Assembly (NCBI GenBank): GCA_022560555.1
Contig: JADFSZ010000001.1
Span: 4,006-36,005 of the forward strand
DNA from: PVC group bacterium
Lineage (GTDB): Bacteria; GCA-001730085; JADFSZ01
DNA: 32,000 nucleotides
Direction: 5' to 3'
Position 1 is the first letter of the stretch. Every line of letters starts with the position of its first letter. Below the pieces are notes generated by a model. That model saw nothing but the letters and a program-made list of their open reading frames with translations, was not told the DNA's origin and did no database searches. The translations under genes were made by a program, and so were the position numbers. Below are positions 15,090 to 32,000 of the stretch, piece by piece.

Positions 15090-15895
15090 CTGCCCCCTTT
15101 AAGCTCTTCTATCAAACATACGGAAACCCTTCACATCCACCCATCCTATTTCTTCATGGATTTCTCGGATCTCATCGTGATTGGGAATCTATCATTTCAC
15201 AATGCCTTCCTAATTACTTTTCCATAGCGGTTGATCTTCCCGGTCACGGAAAAAGCCCGATATCCGGATCTATTATGACTTTTTCACTGTGTACGGATGC
15301 ACTTGAAGCGGTTTTAAAAGATCTGGGAAGTCTAAAGCCGTTAGCGGTAGGTTACTCCATGGGGGGCCGTCTTCTTTTATGGACGGCCATCCATCGACCT
15401 CATCTGTTTTCTCGGATTCTTCTTGAAAGCGTCCATCCCGGCATTGAGGAAGAAAAGGAACAAGATCAGCGCATCCAATCAGACGCATTATTGTCCCAAA
15501 AACTGAAAGTGATGCCCTTCAATGATTTTCTAAGATATTGGTATCGCTCAAGCATGTTCGCCTCTCTTGTACAAACACCGGACGCACTCGAGAGCATCAT
15601 CCGGCTACGATTAGACAACAATCCCGAAGAATTATCTCAAGCCTTAAAATATCTAGGAACGGGCCGGCAACAACCTCTGTGGGGAGAGCTTAAAAATCTA
15701 AATATTCCTGTGCATTTGCTTGCAGGAGTTTTGGATGAGCACTACGTCCGTATTGCAAGAAGAATCAAAAATATATTGCCTGAGAGTTCTCTTCATTTGA
15801 TCCCAAAAACGGGTCACAATATTCACCTGGAAAATCCTAAAGAATTTTGCCTGCATCTGCATAACTTCTTGACCCTAGAGTTCAACACCCATTAA
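15086..15895 (+). CDS. menH: SHCHC synthase MenH (alpha/beta hydrolase)
   Basis: ATGA overlap with the menD stop. HGFLGS oxyanion region, nucleophile elbow GYSMGGR and C-terminal GHNIH. Assigned as MenH from operon context. Confidence 0.72.
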   Translation: MTAPFKLFYQTYGNPSHPPILFLHGFLGSHRDWESIISQCLPNYFSIAVDLPGHGKSPISGSIMTFSLCTDALEAVLKDLGSLKPLAVGYSMGGRLLLWTAIHRPHLFSRILLESVHPGIEEEKEQDQRIQSDALLSQKLKVMPFNDFLRYWYRSSMFASLVQTPDALESIIRLRLDNNPEELSQALKYLGTGRQQPLWGELKNLNIPVHLLAGVLDEHYVRIARRIKNILPESSLHLIPKTGHNIHLENPKEFCLHLHNFLTLEFNTH

Positions 15896-17332
15896 ATACA
15901 ATTTTTGGTATCCGTAATCTCCTTCTAATAGCGCGTTCGTAAAATTAAATTTACGCTGATATTCTAGAATTTCTTTCTTGTCTCTTACAACGAAAAACGC
16001 TTTCGATTTATTCGGGGGCAACTCTTCGATTGCTTTTTTGGGTTTATCAAATAACCAAACCGTATCCGGCAATCCTTTCATGCGCCCTGCTAAGATCAGA
16101 GAGTAAGGATCCGCTGCAGAAGAGATGTACACAAAGACATTCGAATCAGTTTGATACACATCTCTGATTTTTTTGGCCAATTCCAGAGGATGAAACTCGT
16201 CCAGATAATAAGGCGCAACAAGATCATCCTGCTCCTGTTGAGGCGAAAGAATTGAAGAGAAAATATGGATATTTTGTTTAACGAATTGGCTCCATACAAC
16301 CGTAAGGATGAGAATAATAACAGCGATTATTTTACCATAATACGGATACCGCAATCGTACCCACGATAAGGCCGTCTTCAGCCATACAGAAGATCCAAAA
16401 TACCATAAAGGAAGGAAAATTAGAAACACGCGTGGGTAGGGAGACGGATTTAGGATCAATATTATAATCAACGGAAGCATAAATGAAAAAAGGATCATGG
16501 TATGACACGAATGGTTTTTTAAAAGGCTTGCAAGCCGACGAACTCTTAAAAATATTCCCAGAAGTATCACGAGCACCATCGGCAGACACGCCATAAACAC
16601 CGCTCCATATAAGTGTTCCATAGTTTGCCACGGACTACTCCAACCTGCCTGCCGTCCGGCAAATGTCACCATACTGGACATCTTGGGAAGATACATAATA
16701 CCCGAAGACAATGCGAGACTGCTGATCACCAACCTAGTTTTAAGACAACCTCTCGATTGGGTAAGAAAGAGTGGCATTAGGGCGATAAAATAAAAAATAT
16801 TGAAGGGAACAACCCACACAGCTAAAAAGGTCAAGCCCACAAAAAGAAACCCGCCGCGTCTCACTTCCCCGCGCCGAATAAGCTGCGCACTCCAGAGACC
16901 GAGAACGCCCAGCCACATGGACAACATATATCCGCGAACCGCGCATCCATAGATACTAAATGGTACAGATGTGATAAAAGCCGTTATTCCGAGGAGGGTA
17001 GGCCAAAAACCGAGCGGACGATACCACACACGCCATATTGTGATAACAACACATCCGGATAAGACAAAAGACAACAAACGAAACAAAAAAATGGGATCTT
17101 GAAACCATGATTCTAAAGCTAAAGTCCAGAACCGCAATAGTACATTAAATCCGATATGATTATTGGGAATAGGATAATAGGAAAATATCTCTAAAAAAGA
17201 AGGGAGTGTAACAAATTCAATAATCGTTAATGCCTCATCATACCATAAAGGGCGGCTTAAATGAGGCACCAACAGAGTCCATGACACACACAGTGTAAGC
17301 AGGCCCACCAATTGTACTTTTCGTTCCCTCAT
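15875..17332 (-). CDS. GT-C fold membrane glycosyltransferase (family 39/PMT_2/ArnT-like)
   Basis: 485 aa with about 11 predicted TM helices, a first-loop acidic motif PLWYDEALTI typical of GT39/83-type enzymes, and a ~130-aa soluble C-terminal domain. The 3' end overlaps the menH 3' end by 21 nt (convergent). Confidence 0.55.
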   Translation of the reverse strand: MRERKVQLVGLLTLCVSWTLLVPHLSRPLWYDEALTIIEFVTLPSFLEIFSYYPIPNNHIGFNVLLRFWTLALESWFQDPIFLFRLLSFVLSGCVVITIWRVWYRPLGFWPTLLGITAFITSVPFSIYGCAVRGYMLSMWLGVLGLWSAQLIRRGEVRRGGFLFVGLTFLAVWVVPFNIFYFIALMPLFLTQSRGCLKTRLVISSLALSSGIMYLPKMSSMVTFAGRQAGWSSPWQTMEHLYGAVFMACLPMVLVILLGIFLRVRRLASLLKNHSCHTMILFSFMLPLIIILILNPSPYPRVFLIFLPLWYFGSSVWLKTALSWVRLRYPYYGKIIAVIILILTVVWSQFVKQNIHIFSSILSPQQEQDDLVAPYYLDEFHPLELAKKIRDVYQTDSNVFVYISSAADPYSLILAGRMKGLPDTVWLFDKPKKAIEELPPNKSKAFFVVRDKKEILEYQRKFNFTNALLEGDYGYQKLYLMGVEL

Positions 17333-17368: not shown

Positions 17369-17809
17369 TTACCTTGATGTGTCTTCATAAATAATATAAT
17401 TGGGAAATTTATCGGCATATTTTCCAATCCACTCTAATGCGGCCTCTTCTCCCGTAAGCACACGACCCTCTTTTTGGAAGATTTCTTTTTTATATTGTTC
17501 AATATAACAGATCTGTTCTACCATACGGATTCGATTTTCGTCTTGAGGATTTACAAATTTCACACCAACATGATATTCACCTTTGGTCTTCCGGCACCAA
17601 ACAACAGTGGCTTTAACCTGAAATACCGGATCAACCAAAGGGATTTTTATATGAATGATGGCCCCTTCCTTTAGGGTGACCTTTGATCGAAATGATAATC
17701 CGCCTACACTGATATCATCTAAATAATCTTTTGTATCCACGGCAACATCGGCAAGCTGAATATCAATGGGAATATTTGACGGATGTCTGATGAATTCGCG
17801 AAATTTCAT
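17369..17809 (-). CDS. Stand-alone PilZ domain protein (c-di-GMP receptor type) with ~50-aa helical C-terminal extension
   Basis: N-terminal REFIR (RxxxR) and DISVGG (DxSxxG), with a beta-rich core between and after the two motifs. AGAGGG Shine-Dalgarno 5 nt upstream. Confidence 0.8.
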   Translation of the reverse strand: MKFREFIRHPSNIPIDIQLADVAVDTKDYLDDISVGGLSFRSKVTLKEGAIIHIKIPLVDPVFQVKATVVWCRKTKGEYHVGVKFVNPQDENRIRMVEQICYIEQYKKEIFQKEGRVLTGEEAALEWIGKYADKFPNYIIYEDTSR

Positions 17810-22111: not shown

Positions 22112-23566
22112 TTAATCTGAAACACTCGCCAATAAACAGGATATTTCAAAATCCGTCACATCACGAAGCCCGTCTTTTCTTTTGGCTGTGTATTTAGTTT
22201 TGACATTTTTTAGGAATTCAGATTTTTCCATATGATCAACAAAATAAAACACGGTTGACATCGATCGAGCCGTGCCGCGAATCGAAAATCGCCCCCGGCT
22301 ATCATAACGGATAAAATTCAGCTCCAAGTCCGAAGGGATTAATTGATAAATCTCCGTTAAAACTAAAAGAGAATACCCGCGCTTCGATTGATAGTTCCGT
22401 ATGAGCGTAATTTTACTAAAGCTGTCTTCAAGTTTTTCTGCCGCTTCATTTATGGGTTTGTATTTGGTTTCCAAATTAGAGATATAAACACTCTTAAATG
22501 CCATATTCGAAAGCAGAACAGAAAAACCCAGGATAAAAATTATAAGAATAAGAATACCTGTTTTGATCATGTCACGGCTGCGCTCTTCAAGTTGACGCTG
22601 TATTTTTACCTCCTGGGGGATCAAGTTGACTTTAAGATCCTTCCCTGCCGACATGACTCCCATCAGGGCAAGCAAAGAAATCCCTTTCTCTTTTTCCAGA
22701 TTTTGAGCCGCGCTTTTTGAAATGTGGAAATACTTTTCATAGGGTAGTATCTTGACGGGAAGAAGAAGGTTGTCCGATATCGTTTCTTCTGCTCCCACAA
22801 ACATTTCTACCGCTCCCGTAATGAAAGCCTCCCCGGGACGCTTTCCTATATCTTCAGACAAATACGCCTCCAAAGATTTTTTCAACTCATCCGTAAAACG
22901 CTGCAAAGATTGTTCGCGATTACCGGCCATTTCCACGCATCCCAAAGGGATGTTTCGAATAAAAATTACCTTTGCTTGAGAGACAATCGTAAAATCTGTG
23001 TGGGTTTCGTCAATATGGATCATATTGATTGGGGTATTGCTTGAGCTTTTGATTTTAAATATTTTTGAGGCACTCCAGGCTAATGATTCCGGAGCCAAAT
23101 ATACGTTTTCCAATGCTAAGCCCGCATTTTTAAAAATATCGATATATCTTCGAATAATATTTTTCGAGACAATCACCAAAAGCGCTTTTGTATAGTTTTG
23201 TTTGTATACTTCGATGTTGATATAGTCCACAATAATGTCTTCGCGGGAATGAGGGGTATAGCGGCTCGCTTGCAGATTGATAATCTCTTTGATTTCATCA
23301 GGATCAACAGAGGGCAGCTCAATATTTCTTGTAATCACTTGATGACTTGGTACGATCGTCAAGACACCGGCATTACGGGCTTTAGATTCTTCACAATACG
23401 CTTGTATTTGATGCGCGATATCCTCGTCACTCATGGAGCTGATGTTACACGTGTAAATATCCTGGATGTCATGACGAGAGCTCCCCATATGAATAAACCG
23501 CAATGTATCTCCCGAAAGATCAATTCCGACAAGGGCCGTACTTTTCGTCGCGCTTAGATTAAACAT
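22112..23566 (-). CDS. PilM::PilN fusion protein (GspL-equivalent platform protein)
   Basis: 484 aa. The N-terminal ~312 aa are actin-like and PilM-type (ALVGIDLSGDTLRF...). Then come the PilN hallmark VNLIPQEV, a TM helix GILILIIFILGFSVLLSNMAF and a ~120-aa periplasmic domain (coordinates 22115-22630). Confidence 0.72.
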   Translation of the reverse strand: MFNLSATKSTALVGIDLSGDTLRFIHMGSSRHDIQDIYTCNISSMSDEDIAHQIQAYCEESKARNAGVLTIVPSHQVITRNIELPSVDPDEIKEIINLQASRYTPHSREDIIVDYINIEVYKQNYTKALLVIVSKNIIRRYIDIFKNAGLALENVYLAPESLAWSASKIFKIKSSSNTPINMIHIDETHTDFTIVSQAKVIFIRNIPLGCVEMAGNREQSLQRFTDELKKSLEAYLSEDIGKRPGEAFITGAVEMFVGAEETISDNLLLPVKILPYEKYFHISKSAAQNLEKEKGISLLALMGVMSAGKDLKVNLIPQEVKIQRQLEERSRDMIKTGILILIIFILGFSVLLSNMAFKSVYISNLETKYKPINEAAEKLEDSFSKITLIRNYQSKRGYSLLVLTEIYQLIPSDLELNFIRYDSRGRFSIRGTARSMSTVFYFVDHMEKSEFLKNVKTKYTAKRKDGLRDVTDFEISCLLASVSD

Positions 23567-25566: not shown

Positions 25567-26056
25567 CGTCACTTTCCTCAATACCATCTTTGCCTATGGA
25601 ATAGAGATCATAATCCTTGCGATGATCTCCCGGGCTTTTATACTGATACGGACGCCCCCAGGGGTCGGTAATGTCTGTTTCTAAATAGGGACCGTGCCAG
25701 TTGGAGGCAGAGGCGGTTTTGCTAAGGAGGGCGCTTAAGCCTTCTGATGTAGACGGAAACGCTCCGTTATCCAGTTCATAGAGTTTGAGCGCTGTCGCAA
25801 TATTAGCCTTAATGTCGGCTTCAGCAATAGTCACACGGGCCTGCTCGCTGCGCCCGGTGAGACGGGGCATCACCATCGCGGCTAAAGCACCGATGATAAT
25901 TACAACGAGCAAAAGCTCAACAAGGGTAAAACCCTGTTGATGGCGAAAGCCATTAACAGATCGGAGTTTTGATTTTTGCTTCACAGTATGCTTTCGATTT
26001 TGTCTTACATCTGTCGACTGTTGACTGTCGACTATTGACCCAAAAATATTTGTCAT
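25541..26056 (-). CDS. gspG: Major pseudopilin GspG
   Basis: G|FTLVELLLVVIIIGALAAMVMPR followed by GspG blocks ALKLYELDNGAFPS, GPYLE, DPWGRPYQYKSPG, YDLYSIGKDG and DDVRNW. Start set to the ATG at 26056, which has AAGGAG 8 nt upstream and avoids overlap with the peptidase gene. Confidence 0.9.
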   Translation of the reverse strand: MTNIFGSIVDSQQSTDVRQNRKHTVKQKSKLRSVNGFRHQQGFTLVELLLVVIIIGALAAMVMPRLTGRSEQARVTIAEADIKANIATALKLYELDNGAFPSTSEGLSALLSKTASASNWHGPYLETDITDPWGRPYQYKSPGDHRKDYDLYSIGKDGIEESDDDVRNWKD

Positions 26057-26070
26057 TTCGTTTTCTCCTT

Positions 26071-26985
26071 TTACGAGCTTAATTTTTCTTCTAAATACTC
26101 CCGCCATCGTTCTTCAAATTCATCCAAATTTTTCATTTTATTCGGGTACGCACTTTGAAGAGCCTCCTCGAGTTTTTTGCCGTCCCGCAGCTCACGGCAA
26201 AACTGGGTAAATCTTTTTGCGCCGAACCGATCGATCATAAAGTTAATCATAGCCACGGATTCCAAATAATATGTTTTGACGAGACTCTCAACATCCAGGA
26301 AAAGGGCCGCCATTTTACCTTCCCGCGTTTTCGTGGCTCGAATATATATCCGATCCATATCCTTCAAAAGGCGAATATCGAGTTTCATCATGTCTTCAAT
26401 ACTGAGAAGTTTGTCCTCTTTATAATATTCCATGGCTGTTTGGCTCATGTATTCTCTCTTGGATTCTTCCGCCCATTGCGCCACTCCTTCATCCAGCCAG
26501 AGAGGAATCTCCCCTTTAAATCCCACAAAATCACGGAAAATCAAATGCGCCATTTCATGAGGCAGCAAGGATTCCACAAACCCTTCTCCCCAGGCATAGC
26601 TGACGATTTGTTTGTGCGTATAATCAGCCATGCCATGCGACCATTCAGGCTGATCGGTCGCTTGAATAAAGGCCTTATGATCGGCAAAGATATAAATCGG
26701 AACACGGTTATCCCATGTCCAAAAACCCGAATATCTCGGATAACCGAGTCCTTGAGCGATCCGCACATAATATTTTTCGGCTTTATCAAGTACGTTCTTG
26801 GCAAACTTGTCGTCATCCGTATAATATACAAAAAAATGTTCCCCGCTCACTTTCTTCCAGTCATAATTATCCAGGCTGACACGAATAGCTCCTTTCTGCC
26901 CGGCAAAGAGATCGCTCGTGTGGCCCAGGGCTAACAACAAAGCGCCCGCAATCCATATACTTTTCAATTGATGCATATGTTTCAT
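26071..26985 (-). CDS. Secreted zinc metallopeptidase, Peptidase_MA_2-like (HExxH + downstream Glu)
   Basis: 304 aa. Signal peptide (SIWIAGALLLALGHTSDLFAG), LLPHEMAHLIF (HExxH) and WLDEGVAQWAEE ~20 residues later (gluzincin-type third ligand). Confidence 0.72.
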   Translation of the reverse strand: MKHMHQLKSIWIAGALLLALGHTSDLFAGQKGAIRVSLDNYDWKKVSGEHFFVYYTDDDKFAKNVLDKAEKYYVRIAQGLGYPRYSGFWTWDNRVPIYIFADHKAFIQATDQPEWSHGMADYTHKQIVSYAWGEGFVESLLPHEMAHLIFRDFVGFKGEIPLWLDEGVAQWAEESKREYMSQTAMEYYKEDKLLSIEDMMKLDIRLLKDMDRIYIRATKTREGKMAALFLDVESLVKTYYLESVAMINFMIDRFGAKRFTQFCRELRDGKKLEEALQSAYPNKMKNLDEFEERWREYLEEKLSS

Positions 26986-27063
26986 TCACGTTCACTAAAT
27001 TGCATGTAAACGGTTCACAGTTTTCGATTTTCAGTTTTTGGTTTTCGGTTATCGGTCAACGAA

Positions 27064-28275
27064 CTACATATTGATTTCAAATATTGGCAAAAGCATCGCC
27101 ATGACTATAAAACCCACTATGAGGCCCATGAAAAGGATAATGAGAGGCTCCATGAGATTGGCTAATATGCGTGACACCTCATCCGTATCGCGCTCATAAC
27201 TTGAGGCCACCTCACTTAAGGCTTCATCCAAAGATCCGGTCTCTTCACCTACAATAAGGAGATTGGTCATAAAAAGAGGAAAAACTTTGACGTCTTTGAG
27301 GCTTTCACCAAGAGGACTGCCGCGTTCCAATTGTTCATAACTCGTTTTTAGCGCGTTTTTCAGAACCTCATTTTTGAGAACCGGTATTGACACATCGAGC
27401 GCCTTGAGAATCGTGATTCCGTTTCGAATCAAAATCTCAAGTGTCCGCGCAAAACGTGATATCTCGGATTTGAGAATAAATTCTCCGTAAATCGGAAGTT
27501 TTAGTTGGAATCGGCCGAAAGAAAGTTTTCCTGATTCTGTTTTAAGGCTCCGGCTAATGACCATACCGAGAAACACACAAGCAATAAGTATCCAAAGCCA
27601 CCAGTCTTGGAGAAAAGTGCTGATGTCAATCAAAATTCTTGTCGGCATCGGGAGCTCTTGTCCCGTCCGGATAAACATCTCGGCCAATTTCGGCACAACA
27701 TAGCTCAACATAAAAATGACGGTTCCGAGTCCAACAAACGCCATCAGCGAGGGATAAACCATCGCCATCCGTAAACGAGCCATCAAAGCATGCTGTTTTT
27801 CCCGGTAATCTGAGATACGCATTAAGGCTTCAGGAAGAGATCCGCTGTTTTCTCCGGCATGAACAATCGAGATATACAAGGATGGGAAAACCTTCGGATA
27901 CTTTTCTAAGGCCGAAGAAAAGGTTCCTCCGTCTTCAACAATGTCATGAATATCATTCAGCATAAAATTGAGACTTGCCTTGTCCGCCTGCTCGGCAATA
28001 ATGGATAAGGCCCTGAGAATGGGGACCCCGGACTTAAGAAGGCTGGCCATCTGACGGCTAAAAAGCGTAATCTGCCTGTGTTTAATCCTTCCCGGCTTGA
28101 TTTTGCTGATTTCTTTCGGAGGCTGAGTTTTGTTCTCTTCTTTTTTTTCCAGCTTAATGGGAAGCAAGCCAAGAGCGTTAATTTTTTCTACGGCATCCTG
28201 CTCGTTATCGGCCTCGATTTGTCCGTCAATAACGTTTTGGGTATCTTTTTTCGCGCGGTAATGAAAAGTAACCAT
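27064..28275 (-). CDS. gspF: Type II secretion/type IV pilus platform protein GspF/PilC family
   Basis: 403 aa. N-terminal FHYRAKKDTQNVIDGQIEA, two T2SSF repeats (FSRQMASLLKSGVPILRAL...; FARTLEILIRNGITILKAL...) and three TM segments. The start lies 1 nt after the gspE stop. Confidence 0.9.
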   Translation of the reverse strand: MVTFHYRAKKDTQNVIDGQIEADNEQDAVEKINALGLLPIKLEKKEENKTQPPKEISKIKPGRIKHRQITLFSRQMASLLKSGVPILRALSIIAEQADKASLNFMLNDIHDIVEDGGTFSSALEKYPKVFPSLYISIVHAGENSGSLPEALMRISDYREKQHALMARLRMAMVYPSLMAFVGLGTVIFMLSYVVPKLAEMFIRTGQELPMPTRILIDISTFLQDWWLWILIACVFLGMVISRSLKTESGKLSFGRFQLKLPIYGEFILKSEISRFARTLEILIRNGITILKALDVSIPVLKNEVLKNALKTSYEQLERGSPLGESLKDVKVFPLFMTNLLIVGEETGSLDEALSEVASSYERDTDEVSRILANLMEPLIILFMGLIVGFIVMAMLLPIFEINM

Positions 28276-28276
28276 A

Positions 28277-30460
28277 TCACTCGTTCAGATCGGAATCAAT
28301 ATACCGATTCAATTTTGCTCTGTCAGCACTTGCAATATCTAAATAACAAACGGCAATATCATACGTTTTGTTCGAAACATCTTCATCAACACGAACAGCT
28401 TTCGCGAGACAGACAATAGGATTTTCGTCACCTTCCAATTCAACCTTAAGATCCAGTAAAGAACCGATCGCAACGGGTTTATGTGCCACAAACAAAATCC
28501 CTCCAGCAGATACATTTTTTGTGACCGCTAACTGCTCAGGCTTAAACACCCCTTTAATCAATTCGTCATGAGATTTGTAAACTTTGTAAGAAATATTCAG
28601 GTTCCGGGCCAATCTAGAATAATTACGCCGCCCCTGAACATTTTCGCTTGATTCATCGCTAAGGGTACTAGGCGGTGGAGATCCCTTGGTCGGCCTCGTT
28701 CCTGTTGCAATGGCTGTTCTCACAGGCACCCCGGGATCCACTATGGGTGTAACCTGCATGATTTCTTCCGCAGTTGTGACACCTTGGACAACTTTCTGCC
28801 AACCGTCTTGTCTTAAAACACGCATACCTTTTTGGATGGCAACACGTTTGATATGGCTGGACGATGTTTTTTTAATAATCAAATCTTTGATTTCATCATC
28901 CACAAGCAATATCTCGTAGATCGCTACACGGCCAAAAAAACCAGTAAAATTGCAATTGGGGCACCCTTTCCCTCGATAAATTTTCATATTCGCGTCTTTC
29001 AGCCCTAAATCCCGGGCCAGGGTTTCTTTGAGTTCTTTCGGTGTGATTTTGTCTTCATATTTACAATCGGAACAGATCATACGTATCAGTCTTTGAGCGA
29101 TAAAGGCTTCCACGCTTGAGGCTACGAGATAGGGCTCCACGCCGATGTCCACAAGACGCGTAATACCGCTCGACGCGTCATTCGTATGAAGAGTGGAAAA
29201 TATCAGATGTCCCGTCAAAGCCACGCGAATAGCGATGGAAGCCGTCTCAAGGTCTCTCACTTCGCCCACCATGATCACATCGGGGTCATGCCGCAAGATA
29301 CTTCTCAGCCCCCGCGCGAAATCAAGTCCGATTTCAGACATAACCTGCATCTGTGTAATCCCCTTCATTTCATATTCCACGGGATCCTCGATGGTGATAA
29401 TTTTACGTTCTCTTGTGTTAATGCGATTCAAACAGGAATAAAGAGTGGTTGTTTTTCCGCTTCCCGTGGGGCCCGTGAGAAATACAATGCCGTGGGGTTT
29501 TTGTATCAGGCTTTCAAAGACTCTTAATTCCGCCATGGCTAGACCCAGCTTTTCCAAACTGAACAGACGACTGCTCGGCAACATTCTCACGACGACACTC
29601 TCTCCGAAAGGCGTGGGAACAGTGGAGATACGCAAGTCCAAAACATCGTCCTGAACTTTCACCATGGCGCGTCCATCTTGCGGCAATCGCCTCTCAACAA
29701 TGTTCAAGCTGGACATAATTTTAATGCGTGAAATAATCGCGTTAATATTTTTTTTGACGCCGGGTGAAATATTTGTCTCATAAAGAAGCCCGTCGATACG
29801 GTACCTTAAAGATACACCGCCGCGAAACGGCTCAATATGAATATCCGTCGCGCGTTTACGCCATCCTTCTAAAATGATTTGATTCACGAGCTTGATAACA
29901 GACTCATCATCAGCTAGATCCTCTAAATCCGTAAGCTCGTCTTTCTCTTGTGCCTTTGAGTCCTTTTTCGAGGCAGTCTCCGCAACGACTGACATTCTGT
30001 CCAAGGTTTCAGCCCCTAAACCATAACTTCTTTTCAATGCTTCCATCATATCTTTTGTCGATGTTAAAACAAACGCGACTTCATAACCGAGCTGCGTGCG
30101 TATCTCATCCTGGGTCTTCAGATCCATGGGGGCATTCACAGCAACAGTCAACGTTCGTCCTTTAATACGCATCGGTAAAAAACGATAGTATGTTGCGATT
30201 TTGACGGGAACAATATCCAGGACTTTCTGGTCTACCTCGGCATTGCGGACATCAACAATTTCAAGCCCAAGCGTATCGGAAAGAACCTGTAAAATATCCG
30301 TTTCTTTAATCACTGATTTACTGATAAGGACCTGCTGCAGCGTTGCACCTGATTGACCAATTTCTTTAAGTAAAGGCTCGAGCTTCTCTTTGGACAACAT
30401 GCCTTTTTGCATCAAAGCTTCTAAGAGGACTGTGTCATGTTTTTTCGTGCTTGGCATCAT
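28277..30460 (-). CDS. gspE: GspE/PilB-family secretion ATPase with N-terminal MshEN-like (T2SSE_N) domain and C-terminal PilZ domain
   Basis: 727 aa, one uninterrupted ORF. Walker A GPTGSGKTTT, Walker B IIMVGEVRD, His box TGHLIFSTLHTND and tetracysteine CSDC...CPNC. After a Pro/Ser/Thr-rich linker comes a PilZ with RRNYSR (RRxxxR) and NVSAGG (NxSxxG). Confidence 0.9.
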   Translation of the reverse strand: MMPSTKKHDTVLLEALMQKGMLSKEKLEPLLKEIGQSGATLQQVLISKSVIKETDILQVLSDTLGLEIVDVRNAEVDQKVLDIVPVKIATYYRFLPMRIKGRTLTVAVNAPMDLKTQDEIRTQLGYEVAFVLTSTKDMMEALKRSYGLGAETLDRMSVVAETASKKDSKAQEKDELTDLEDLADDESVIKLVNQIILEGWRKRATDIHIEPFRGGVSLRYRIDGLLYETNISPGVKKNINAIISRIKIMSSLNIVERRLPQDGRAMVKVQDDVLDLRISTVPTPFGESVVVRMLPSSRLFSLEKLGLAMAELRVFESLIQKPHGIVFLTGPTGSGKTTTLYSCLNRINTRERKIITIEDPVEYEMKGITQMQVMSEIGLDFARGLRSILRHDPDVIMVGEVRDLETASIAIRVALTGHLIFSTLHTNDASSGITRLVDIGVEPYLVASSVEAFIAQRLIRMICSDCKYEDKITPKELKETLARDLGLKDANMKIYRGKGCPNCNFTGFFGRVAIYEILLVDDEIKDLIIKKTSSSHIKRVAIQKGMRVLRQDGWQKVVQGVTTAEEIMQVTPIVDPGVPVRTAIATGTRPTKGSPPPSTLSDESSENVQGRRNYSRLARNLNISYKVYKSHDELIKGVFKPEQLAVTKNVSAGGILFVAHKPVAIGSLLDLKVELEGDENPIVCLAKAVRVDEDVSNKTYDIAVCYLDIASADRAKLNRYIDSDLNE

Positions 30461-30475
30461 TAAGCTCTTTACTGT

Positions 30476-30931
30476 TTATTTGTATTTTGATTTAACATGA
30501 TCACGGTATCTTTCAATGACATAATCGATATCACTTTTCGTGGTCAATACCAGCTTTACTTTTAGGCCCCGGGCTTCGGCCTCGGCCTTTTGAAGCACGT
30601 CAAGATCCAAGGGATTTGTGAGAGCCATGGTCACAGACACATCGTCTTCAGACACCGGGACACAATGAAAATCCATCACCAACGAAGGACTGTATTTCCC
30701 CAAAAGCTTCCAGTCCACATATTTATATTTTAACTCAACTATGGGAATAGTAAACTGCTCAGATAAAACGGCTAAAAGCTCACTCTCCTTGATCCACCGC
30801 TTCTTGAGCAGGATCTCCCCCAGGAACTGATCCGAAATTTTCTGTTCTTTGAGTGCCAAATTTAACTGTTCCGGTTTCAGCATCCCTTTTTCAACAAGAA
30901 TTTCACCGATTTTTTTCTTTTTTCGCTCCAT
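30476..30931 (-). CDS. Stand-alone MshEN / T2SSE_N domain protein (putative c-di-GMP receptor)
   Basis: 151 aa with no ATPase domain. KIGEILVEKGMLKPEQLNLALKEQ - KISDQ - FLGEILLKKRWIKESELLAVLSEQ matches the tandem 24-residue MshEN motif with its 5-residue spacer. The rest resembles the GspE N1 domain (HCVPVSEDDVSVTMALTNPLDLDVL). Confidence 0.8.
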   Translation of the reverse strand: MERKKKKIGEILVEKGMLKPEQLNLALKEQKISDQFLGEILLKKRWIKESELLAVLSEQFTIPIVELKYKYVDWKLLGKYSPSLVMDFHCVPVSEDDVSVTMALTNPLDLDVLQKAEAEARGLKVKLVLTTKSDIDYVIERYRDHVKSKYK

Positions 30932-30951
30932 CTTTAGTCATTTGGATTTCG

Positions 30952-32000
30952 TCATTTGTTATTGATTTGGTCCAATGCTCCGATCAGGTAAAACTTGTTT
31001 TCAGGTACCTGATCCACTCGACCGGACATAATTTTCTCGCATCCGGCCAATGTCTTATCCAAAGGCACATATTCTCCTTTTTTTCCTGTATAAGCCTCGG
31101 CAACCGAGAAAGGCTGTGTCAGGAAAAACTGAAGTTTCCGCGCGCGTTCATATGTCACGCGATCGGCCATAGACAATTCATCGACGCCTATCACAAGCAC
31201 AATGCGCCTCAATTCTTCATATTTCTGAAACATACGGATCACTTCATGCGCAATATCCACATGCCGTTTTCCAATAATATCGATATCTAAATTAGCACTG
31301 GAAGACAGTAAAGGATCCACCGCAGGATAAATTCCTTGCTGCACTTTTTCACGGGATAAGACCATTACGTTATCAAGAAAACTAAAAAGAGCCACCACCG
31401 CCGGATCCGTCAAATCATCCGCCGGCACATAAACGGCTTCAATAGACGTTATCGAGCCTCCTCCCTGGCTTGTTCGAATCCGTTCATGAAATTCACTGGC
31501 TTCGGCCATCATCGTCGGCTGGTACCCCGTCTCGGAGGGAACGCGCCCCATGAGGGTGGATATCTCCGCTCCGGCTTGGATATAACGAAAAATATTATCC
31601 ACAAAAAGGAGGACATCTTTGTTTTTTCTTTGGATGGATTCGGCCAACGTGATCCCCGTCATCGCGACGCCGAATCGAGCTCCCGGAGGTTCGTTCATTT
31701 GCCCGAACACCATCATAGTTTTTGAAAGAACACCATGATGCTTAAGCTCAAGGTAGAGTTCGTTTCCCTCTCGAATCCGTTCTCCGATTCCGGTAAAAAC
31801 ACAGGACCCTTCGTGTTCTTTGACAATATGCTGAATAATTTCCAACGTTAAAACACTCTTTCCCATGCCCGCTCCCCCCAAAATCCCTGTTTTGGATCCC
31901 TTCACAAGAGGAAAAAGCAAATCAATGACTTTCAATCCGGTTTCCAAAACCTCAAACGATTTCTCCTTTTTCTCACTTGTGTTAATGAGGCTGCCCATAT
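30952..32000 (-). CDS. atpD: F1-ATPase beta-subunit-like protein, divergent; 5' end probably beyond window edge
   Basis: 348 aa visible. P-loop GGAGMGKS, GIGERIREGNELY, QMNEPPGAR, DNIFRYIQAGAEIS, VYVPADDLTDPA, YPAVDPL and DELSMAD in place of DELSEED. The Walker A lies ~40 aa from the in-window ATG at 31998, versus ~150 aa in canonical beta subunits, so the N-terminal domain is most likely off-window. Confidence 0.85.
   Translation of the reverse strand, partial: MGSLINTSEKKEKSFEVLETGLKVIDLLFPLVKGSKTGILGGAGMGKSVLTLEIIQHIVKEHEGSCVFTGIGERIREGNELYLELKHHGVLSKTMMVFGQMNEPPGARFGVAMTGITLAESIQRKNKDVLLFVDNIFRYIQAGAEISTLMGRVPSETGYQPTMMAEASEFHERIRTSQGGGSITSIEAVYVPADDLTDPAVVALFSFLDNVMVLSREKVQQGIYPAVDPLLSSSANLDIDIIGKRHVDIAHEVIRMFQKYEELRRIVLVIGVDELSMADRVTYERARKLQFFLTQPFSVAEAYTGKKGEYVPLDKTLAGCEKIMSGRVDQVPENKFYLIGALDQINNK

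Follow-up and report, generated by a model that had tools for sequence, protein, structure and literature searches.

A free-standing MshEN protein encoded beside a GspE/PilB-type motor ATPase, a candidate c-di-GMP receptor acting in trans in Omnitrophota-type secretion loci

A stretch of 32,000 nucleotides (nt) of a PVC group bacterium (GenBank assembly GCA_022560555.1, contig JADFSZ010000001.1, positions 4,006 to 36,005; hereafter the window, which means this whole stretch) carries a gene for a stand-alone MshEN protein of 151 amino acids (aa), located immediately upstream of the gene for a GspE/PilB-type motor ATPase. Our reading, held with somewhat better than even confidence, is that this protein is a free-standing receptor of cyclic di-GMP (c-di-GMP), which was split off from the motor and acts in trans on the adjacent motor of a machine resembling type II secretion systems (T2SS) and type IV pili (T4P). 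That the free protein acts on the adjacent machine appears moderately probable on the basis of gene order, reciprocal motif decay and structural precedents. We infer the action in trans on the motor because the gene order is invariant, because the motif of the ATPase is degenerate where a free MshEN exists, and because the structures 7LKM, 7LKO and 2BH1 provide precedents.

The gene runs from ATG to TAA on the minus strand and its product constitutes one complete MshEN domain, consisting of the four-helix MshEN_N bundle and the alpha/beta MshEN_C subdomain, with no further domain recognized by Pfam. An earlier note, written from the sequence alone, had described a separate polypeptide without ATPase domain, and this description was confirmed, in that the open reading frame (ORF) ends at its TAA and includes no match to T2SSE. 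The two copies of the motif, residues 7-30 (KIGEILVEKGMLKPEQLNLALKEQ) and residues 36-59 (FLGEILLKKRWIKESELLAVLSEQ), are separated by the five-residue spacer KISDQ (residues 31-35), and map exactly to the positions given in that note (30755-30913); the 15-nt distance to the ATPase start at 30460 was also as described. NF053729, a 53-position NCBIfam model named 'c-di-GMP_motif, MshE-related' with a cut-off of 38 bits, matched residues 7-59 over its full length (model positions 1-53) with 60.2 bits, and Pfam PF05157 matched residues 62-146 with 45.1 bits against a cut-off of 23.1 (E 9.9e-12). Alignment by phmmer to the MshEN domain of Vibrio cholerae (5HTL) was free of gaps over 109 residues (5HTL 5-113 and free MshEN 3-111; E 2e-10), setting K7 to R9, G9 to G11, Q30 to Q32, F36 to R38, G38 to G40 and Q59 to Q61, and N106 to D108. 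Both this alignment to MshE and the scoring by hidden Markov models (HMM), here PF05157, had been named in the earlier note as checks of the assignment, and both agree well with it.

The fold was modeled with AlphaFold2 (AF2) using 30 homologues, giving pLDDT 90 and pTM 0.78. In the model, helices 8-14, 20-33, 37-43 and 49-60 come first, and behind them lies an alpha/beta unit with strands at 91-95, 99-104 and 124-129. The top Foldseek matches of the model were chains A and B of 5HTL, the complex of MshE with c-di-GMP (TM score 0.82-0.90; root-mean-square deviation 1.6-1.8 Å), and the next were c-di-GMP-bound structures of the GSPII-B domain of PilF. Among the further neighbors were the PilB(N)-PilZ structures 7LKM and 7LKO, the EpsE-N1/EpsL complex 2BH1 and the non-binding GSPII-A domain of PilF (9G1W, determined by nuclear magnetic resonance). 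Judged by its sequence, the free protein is homologous to the N-terminal domain that GspE/PilB/MshE ATPases carry, yet is no member of the ATPase family.

When the strict published consensus was applied as a regular expression, neither copy matched, and a total of six departures were found instead of the two listed in the earlier note. In copy 1, position 1 has K instead of R, position 2 has I instead of L, and position 11 is M; in copy 2, F takes the place of R at position 1 and R that of G at position 10, and position 11 is W. The relaxed motif of Wang et al. 2016 is matched by copy 1. At position 1, K7 agrees with the extended consensus, and F36, outside the strict, extended and relaxed motifs, is hydrophobic as is L196 of PilF. 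The word 'intact' in the earlier note overstates the fit, because copy 2 carries F at position 1 and is devoid of Gly10.

Measured against published structure-function data, these departures appear to lie on positions that tolerate change. The backbone of Gly3 makes hydrogen bonds to guanine, and the substitutions G11L and G40I abolish the stabilization by c-di-GMP; mutations of the leucines lower the affinity for c-di-GMP more than 10-fold; Gln24 makes hydrogen bonds with the ribose-phosphate of the ligand; and mutations of the Arg at position 1 change the affinity less than 5-fold (PMC5013675). The isolated MshEN_N domain alone is able to bind c-di-GMP. We then counted the conservation in 47 unique homologues of 147-168 aa. 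The spacer is five residues long in all 47, Gly3 is present in 47/47 for both copies, and Gln24 in 47/47 for copy 1 and 46/47 for copy 2; Leu21 is found in 46/47 in each copy, and Leu17 is likewise near-invariant. The hydrophobic triads, each combining residue 2 of one motif with residues 17 and 21 of the other, are present in the window protein as I8/L52/L56 and L37/L23/L27, and position 2 of copy 1 switches between I (27) and L (19) across the family. At position 1, copy 1 has R in 21, K in 20, L in 3, F in 2 and Q in 1, and copy 2 has F in 41, Y in 3, I in 2 and L in 1, but never R or K. Gly10 of copy 1 is conserved in 39/47 (G16 in the window protein). All of the 30 free MshEN family members scored with NF053729 passed its cut-off.

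From this pattern of sequence conservation, binding of c-di-GMP by the free MshEN is predicted with good confidence. The affinity is probably high, because the K7/F36 pair resembles the K/L pattern at position 1 in GSPII-B of Thermus PilF, a domain whose dissociation constant for c-di-GMP is 6 nM; restoration of Arg made its binding weaker, and a hydrophobic residue at position 1 has been proposed as a predictor of very high affinity (PMC11731258).

The family of free MshEN proteins was collected by several searches. A word-indexed search gave 31 clusters of 147-163 aa with 37-53% identity, one of them named Candidatus Omnitrophota. When GTDB species representatives were scanned with an alignment of eight sequences of the family, 14 loci matched at E <=2e-32, of which 12 are titled Omnitrophota or Omnitrophica, one Planctomycetales and one 'bacterium'; after these 14, the significance falls steeply to E about 1e-18, the level of N-domains of ordinary ATPases from other phyla. 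In the remaining 66 GTDB loci, nearly all matches were N-domains of 545-700-aa ATPases. Searched with a profile, 1.84 billion representatives yielded 36,191 matches, and about 55 of the best 150 were single-domain proteins of 147-168 aa. Two distant single-domain matches were looked up by contig, and both lie in loci of the same Omnitrophota type. The profile matches also included proteins made only of two MshEN repeats (P0035) or three (P0036), (MshEN)4-T2SSE proteins and (MshEN)n-glycosyltransferases. MshEN-only proteins are thus not rare as such, given the single-domain share of the best 150 matches and the two- and three-repeat forms.

Each of the 23 distinct loci shows the order atpD, MshEN, ATPase, GspF, as far as its contig extends to the neighbor. 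These loci (L numbers designate loci below) are the window, the 14 GTDB species representatives and 8 further loci from metagenomes or metagenome-assembled genomes (MAGs). The same order was obtained from three independent starting points, i.e., the MshEN protein, the ATPase and the distant profile matches. The counting of orphan MshEN genes beside gspE in relatives, as proposed in the earlier note, yielded 22 loci that share the order of the window as far as their contigs extend. The MshEN-to-ATPase gap ranges from -17 to +529 nt among 21 loci, and is frequently between -17 and +28 nt. In the window, the TGA of atpD, a neighbor on which the earlier note was silent, lies just 20 nt upstream of the MshEN start codon. 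A consensus scan of positions 26000-32000 detected no terminator in the 20- and 15-nt gaps, and the counts of promoters and terminators over this region equaled the expectation from shuffled sequence. Since the gaps are too short for terminators, we infer co-transcription of atpD, MshEN and the ATPase gene, and the tight or overlapping junctions suggest translational coupling.

The ATPase encoded downstream has an N-terminal MshEN domain of its own in decayed form, and in addition a C-terminal PilZ domain, on both of which the earlier note was silent. In its motif, L13 and Q42 stand in place of Gly3, and I34 and T63 in place of Gln24. By alignment and regular expression, both Gly3 and Gln24 are lost from both copies in 19 PilZ-fused ATPases of syntenic loci, and none of 54 ATPase orthologues reached the NF053729 cut-off, the best having E 4.6e-9, or about 35 bits by conversion. 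In the same 54 orthologues, the PilZ residues R612, R616, S651 and G654 are invariant. The MshEN-T2SSE-PilZ architecture is common to at least 120 orthologous clusters labelled Omnitrophota. Three Omnitrophota ATPases that have neither PilZ nor a free MshEN (L023, L065 and L079) keep both canonical copies with the five-residue spacing. In a more distant locus, L091 (6001-8138), atpD and a free MshEN are accompanied by an ATPase of 559 aa that has no PilZ domain. The N-domain of this ATPase is partly degenerate, with QLA in copy 1 (only G changed to A) and FFG...Q in copy 2 as in the free protein. This copy 2 supports an origin of the free protein by duplication within this motor lineage, and the presence of a free MshEN next to an ATPase without PilZ suggests that the split predates the PilZ fusion. 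The coordinates of all these features are summarized in Table 1.

Table 1. Positions of the features discussed, in the window unless an L number indicates a related locus.
Feature	Coordinates	Strand	Evidence or remark
Stand-alone MshEN gene	30476..30931	minus	151 aa, ATG to TAA; ORF list, PF05157, NF053729, AF2, Foldseek
53-residue c-di-GMP motif, residues 7-59	30755..30913	minus	NF053729, 5HTL register, family conservation
MshEN_C / T2SSE_N1-like subdomain, residues 62-146	30494..30748	minus	Pfam PF05157, secondary structure, 2BH1 match
15-nt spacer from MshEN stop to ATPase start, acagtaaagagctta	30461..30475	minus	Sequence; no terminator-like site
GspE/PilB-type ATPase, 727 aa	28277..30460	minus	Pfam MshEN 64-149, T2SSE 182-568 (E 2.6e-128), PilZ 611-722
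Decayed c-di-GMP motif of the ATPase, residues 11-63	30272..30430	minus	NF053729 24.6 bits, below 38
PilZ fused at the ATPase C-terminus	28295..28630	minus	PF07238; RNYSR (RxxxR), NVSAGG ([D/N]xSxxG)
F1 ATP synthase beta, atpD	30952..31998	minus	Pfam ATP-synt_ab + ATP-synt_VA_C; N-terminus cut by window end
GspF/PilC-type platform protein, next in operon	27064..28275	minus	Pfam T2SSF, two stretches
Peptidase_MA_2 gene between GspF and GspG-like pseudopilin	26071-26985	minus	Kept in most related loci; absent in L005, L091
PilM-PilN fusion (GspL-like), candidate docking site for N1-type domains	22112..23566	minus	Pfam PilM_2 + PilN, NCBIfam pilM
Two ORFs without Pfam match, 156 aa and 485 aa	21038-21508 and 15875-17332	minus	Same gene array
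Stand-alone PilZ protein, 146 aa, downstream of secretion genes; putative third c-di-GMP receptor module nearby	17369..17809	minus	Pfam PF07238, E 1.1e-15
Short epsilon genes	L003 4806-5054; L005 5069-5299; L088 2456-2680; L089 2132-2383; L090 490-726; L091 650-883		
Giant gene stretches	L001 1-4581; L003 1-4787; L005 1-4949; L088 1-2441		

Taken as a working model, the free MshEN would be co-transcribed with the T2SS/T4P-like machine and would bind one c-di-GMP in its N-terminal four-helix bundle. Ligand binding may then alter the docking of the N1-like C-terminal subdomain, or of the bundle itself, onto the decayed N-domain of the ATPase, the PilZ domain of the ATPase or the GspL-like PilM-PilN platform, all of which are candidate targets, and this docking would gate the assembly of the pilus or pseudopilus. 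As to its origin, the N-terminal sensor of the motor would have been duplicated or split into a gene of its own, of which the free copy stays constrained; after the split, the fused copy would have lost the ligand-contacting residues and most lineages would have gained a C-terminal PilZ domain, so that MshEN would sense in trans and PilZ in cis, giving the machine two inputs. On the sequences compared, duplication followed by decay of the fused copy and gain of PilZ appears the most economical history. A more elaborate version, which we put forward as tentative and of rather low probability, is an obligately split switch with two receptors. There the free MshEN would have taken over the high-affinity sensing lost by the N-domain of the motor and would dock in trans, perhaps on the fused PilZ in the manner of the PilB(N)-PilZ pair of Xanthomonas citri, so that together with the cis PilZ of lower affinity two thresholds of c-di-GMP would arise. 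The invariant and often overlapping junction with atpD might in addition reflect a tie between energy supply and the motor.

Several observations weigh against the reading of the free protein as a split-off receptor of this motor. The free MshEN shares 27-38% identity with the canonical N-domains of other phyla and 22-31% with the N-domain of its neighbor. The two genes can be parted by other genes (the REC gene of L001) or by 243-529 nt, and atpD is an equally invariant neighbor on the upstream side, with overlaps of 1-4 nt in several species; because the linkage to atpD is equally conserved and equally tight, the partner is not identifiable from synteny alone. A length check of the 120 orthologous clusters detected no fusion of MshEN to the PilZ-type ATPase, and for this reason the family offers no Rosetta-stone link. 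With respect to the ligand, copy 2 fails the relaxed motif of Wang et al. 2016, only at positions 1 (F) and 10 (R), and Gly10 of copy 2 is kept in just 18/47 homologues, the window protein having R45; a turn is nevertheless seen in the AF2 model at residues 44-48, linking helix 37-43 to helix 49-60. The affinity is estimated by analogy to the K/L pair of PilF, F at position 1 of copy 2 being set beside L. Domain identity, fold, conservation of the motif, gene order and the reciprocal decay of the ATPase motif are established by the analysis; binding of c-di-GMP, affinity, partner and direction of the effect are predictions.

The same parts could also be arranged in the opposite sense, with the free MshEN being a c-di-GMP-controlled decoy, whose N1-like subdomain competes for the PilM-PilN platform and inhibits the engagement of the motor. 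Its C-terminal subdomain (Pfam 62-146) indeed has the T2SSE_N1 fold that binds GspL, as in the structural neighbor 2BH1; competition is possible since the ATPase retains a complete N1 subdomain (Pfam 64-149); a PilM-PilN fusion is encoded in the operon; and two free copies, as found in some genomes, would raise the dose. We regard such a decoy as unlikely, because c-di-GMP at MshEN promotes pilus assembly in all characterized cases (MshE, PilF, PilB; PMC11656802) and no inhibitor of this kind is known, and the sign of the effect is not readable from sequence. With regard to copy number, two tandem free MshEN genes precede the ATPase in L007 (2067-2998) and L016 (4120-5131), and the products of both genes have Gly3 and Gln24.

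The abundance of MshEN-only proteins with one, two or three repeats (about 55 of the best 150 matches, P0035 and P0036), together with PA3740 of Pseudomonas aeruginosa, a non-ATPase MshEN protein that binds c-di-GMP, would also fit a general adaptor or buffer for c-di-GMP with targets elsewhere, its place beside gspE being a mere trace of the duplication. This appears quite unlikely, since the position is kept across homologues just 37-53% identical while the operon after gspF has repeatedly been rearranged by histidine kinases, REC genes and the presence or absence of the peptidase, and since the tight or overlapping junctions suggest translational coupling.

Still less do we expect a structural accessory subunit of the N1 type that does not bind c-di-GMP, like GSPII-A of PilF or XpsE-N; we consider it improbable. 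Copy 2 has neither Arg at position 1 nor the turn Gly10 and fails the relaxed motif, and the non-binding GSPII-A (9G1W) is likewise a close structural neighbor. However, Gly3, the Leu triads and Gln24, the residues at which mutation destroys or markedly weakens binding, show little or no variation among the 47 homologues, a constraint for which a role without ligand can hardly account; several of them have been lost from XpsE and GSPII-A, and the NF053729 cut-off is passed by a margin of 22 bits.

A partner on the other side of the gene, the F-type ATP synthase, would make MshEN the last atp gene, at the usual place of epsilon, coupling c-di-GMP to synthase activity. In favor of this, atpD lies upstream in all loci that reach it, its stop overlaps the MshEN start by 1-4 nt in L001, L003, L014, L017 and L091, the epsilon genes of the operon (74-83 aa, N-terminal domain only) are at the operon head, and it is the MshEN-ATPase side that tolerates inserted genes. 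We find it very improbable all the same: the homology of MshEN is to the N-domain of GspE/PilB, and no connection of it with F-ATPases is known; the motif of the motor has decayed specifically alongside the free copy, which points to the motor; and the atpD side, too, has gaps of about 140-150 nt (L010, L019). A seeming atpD-MshEN fusion in L012, L013 and L015 was rejected, as a TAA followed by 12 nt is present in the sequence.

A pseudogene or assembly artefact, whether the 5' part left from a gspE that was frameshifted or duplicated, or a readthrough fusion, has next to no probability even though the MshEN and ATPase ORFs of the window share one frame and are parted by one TAA plus four codons, because among the loci the junction stop is TAA, TAG or TGA, the two ORFs share a frame in only about half, and the gaps between them span -17 to +529 nt; the length of 147-168 aa is kept in 47 sequences; and, as far as the contigs extend, each locus has downstream an ATPase of full length that carries an N-domain of its own. 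A stop-codon readthrough or frameshift fusion to the ATPase was accordingly rejected, frames, stop codons and gaps differing among loci and no ATPase of fusion length occurring in 120 clusters (0/120), and so was the gspE fragment, which the earlier note had named as the finding that would speak against its proposal: the length is constant, the conservation is site-specific and the ATPase downstream is intact. Outside this family, a 147-aa MshEN ORF with an overlapping 283-aa ORF behind it was noticed in a Candidatus Kuenenia MAG (L052, 6977-8268); this pair may be a broken ATPase, or else a further split arrangement outside Omnitrophota.

In related loci, a giant gene and the atp genes (short epsilon, c, b/delta, alpha, gamma and beta) come first, and then MshEN, the ATPase and GspF, usually followed by the MA-type peptidase, GspG-, J- and K-like pseudopilins, the PilM-PilN fusion and PilO. 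No gene for GGDEF, EAL or HD-GYP was found when diguanylate cyclases and phosphodiesterases were looked for in the window, and no secretin gene (GspD or PilQ) was recognized there. Insertions into the operon vary by species: a REC gene stands between MshEN and the ATPase in L001 (10629-10994), and large histidine kinases with dCache/PAS or CHASE4 follow GspF in L003 (14017-19089) and L088 (11383-18148), the large protein inserted in L003 being a histidine kinase with neither GGDEF nor EAL.

The F-type ATP synthase set (short epsilon, c, b/delta fusion, alpha, gamma, beta) is co-directional with and directly upstream of the T2SS-like operon, as seen in the window (30952-32000, minus), in L001, L003, L005 and L088-L091, and in every related locus whose contig reaches it; no gene for the a subunit was seen in the ATP synthase stretches of the related loci. 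The epsilon subunits consist just of the N-terminal beta-sandwich (PF02823) without the C-terminal helical hairpin, and are encoded at the operon head, not after beta. Directly upstream of the atp genes is a giant gene that runs off the end of the locus, with 2,800 to 3,300 aa or more visible. A T2SS-like locus near giant genes of Omnitrophota has been reported earlier and is described with gspD and rcpC-type pilus genes (bioRxiv 10.1101/2023.11.21.568195). The giant gene upstream of the atp genes may relate to this reported association, but the T2SS-like locus itself may differ from the one here, as it was described with gspD and rcpC-type genes; MshEN is not mentioned in the searched text of the preprint.

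The MshEN domain and its mode of binding (PMC5013675), PA3740, and the control of PilB by c-di-GMP in trans via FimX and PilZ (PMC8389850) were already known. The domain-architecture table in Wang et al. 2016, PMC11656802 and open-access papers containing 'MshEN' and 'stand-alone' mention neither a single-domain MshEN gene kept as the direct companion of a motor gene, nor the reciprocal decay of the motor's own motif, nor the MshEN-T2SSE-PilZ architecture. According to a 2024 review (PMC11656802), it is still unclear by which route the flexible N1/MshEN, once it has bound c-di-GMP, signals to the motors' catalytic core. With a natural split of sensor and motor, it can be asked in an existing system whether docking is the way in which MshEN works, also in trans, which target it docks to, and how it interplays with a second receptor, PilZ, on one motor. 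The finding also shows that variants of the MshEN motif with K and an aromatic residue are conserved in nature. It would furthermore add a layer of c-di-GMP control to the T2SS-like loci beside the giant genes of Omnitrophota. Should the protein fail to bind c-di-GMP, or fail to touch the motor, it would be one more orphan-domain protein. The natural split, which comes from an uncultured phylum, is clean and directly testable, and is assembled from known parts. Omnitrophota are uncultured, possibly predatory or host-dependent nanobacteria.

Compared with known systems, the free MshEN shares with V. cholerae MshEN (5HTL; PMC5013675) the fold of two subdomains, the two 24-residue motifs, the five-residue spacer, Gly3, the Leu triads and Gln24. 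It differs in being a whole protein instead of the N-terminal domain of an ATPase of the 575-aa class, in having K and F at position 1 against R and R, N106 against D108, and no Gly in the alpha3-alpha4 turn. With GSPII-B of Thermus thermophilus PilF (8PDK; PMC11731258) it shares a predicted recognition without Arg1, K7 and F36 corresponding to K167 and L196, and, if the free and fused domains are counted together, the presence of several MshEN units per motor, but in PilF all units belong to one polypeptide. PA3740 of P. aeruginosa (Wang et al. 2016), which is listed among the experimentally characterized c-di-GMP binders, is likewise a non-ATPase protein of MshEN_N plus an N1-like domain, and MshEN proteins without motor domain are therefore an already known kind; comparing by description only, its N1 part is called highly divergent, whereas that of the free MshEN is not (PF05157, E 9.9e-12), and the sources do not describe a conserved GspE/PilB neighborhood.

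The FimX-PilZ-PilB system of X. citri (7LKM, 7LKO; PMC8389850) is alike in the proposed mode of action, in that the c-di-GMP signal reaches the extension motor via separate proteins in trans, as proposed here, and PilB has an N-domain of degenerate MshEN fold that touches a protein with the PilZ fold, the motor here having a degenerate MshEN together with PilZ. In X. citri, however, the sensor is the degenerate EAL protein FimX and PilZ does not bind c-di-GMP, whereas here the putative sensor is a free MshEN and the PilZ domain is fused and carries canonical motifs. Finally, the N1 domain of T2SS GspE in complex with GspL (2BH1) has the fold found in the C-terminal part of the free protein, and a GspL-like PilM-PilN is encoded in the operon; the classical N1 is a part of GspE, and no free N1 protein has been described.

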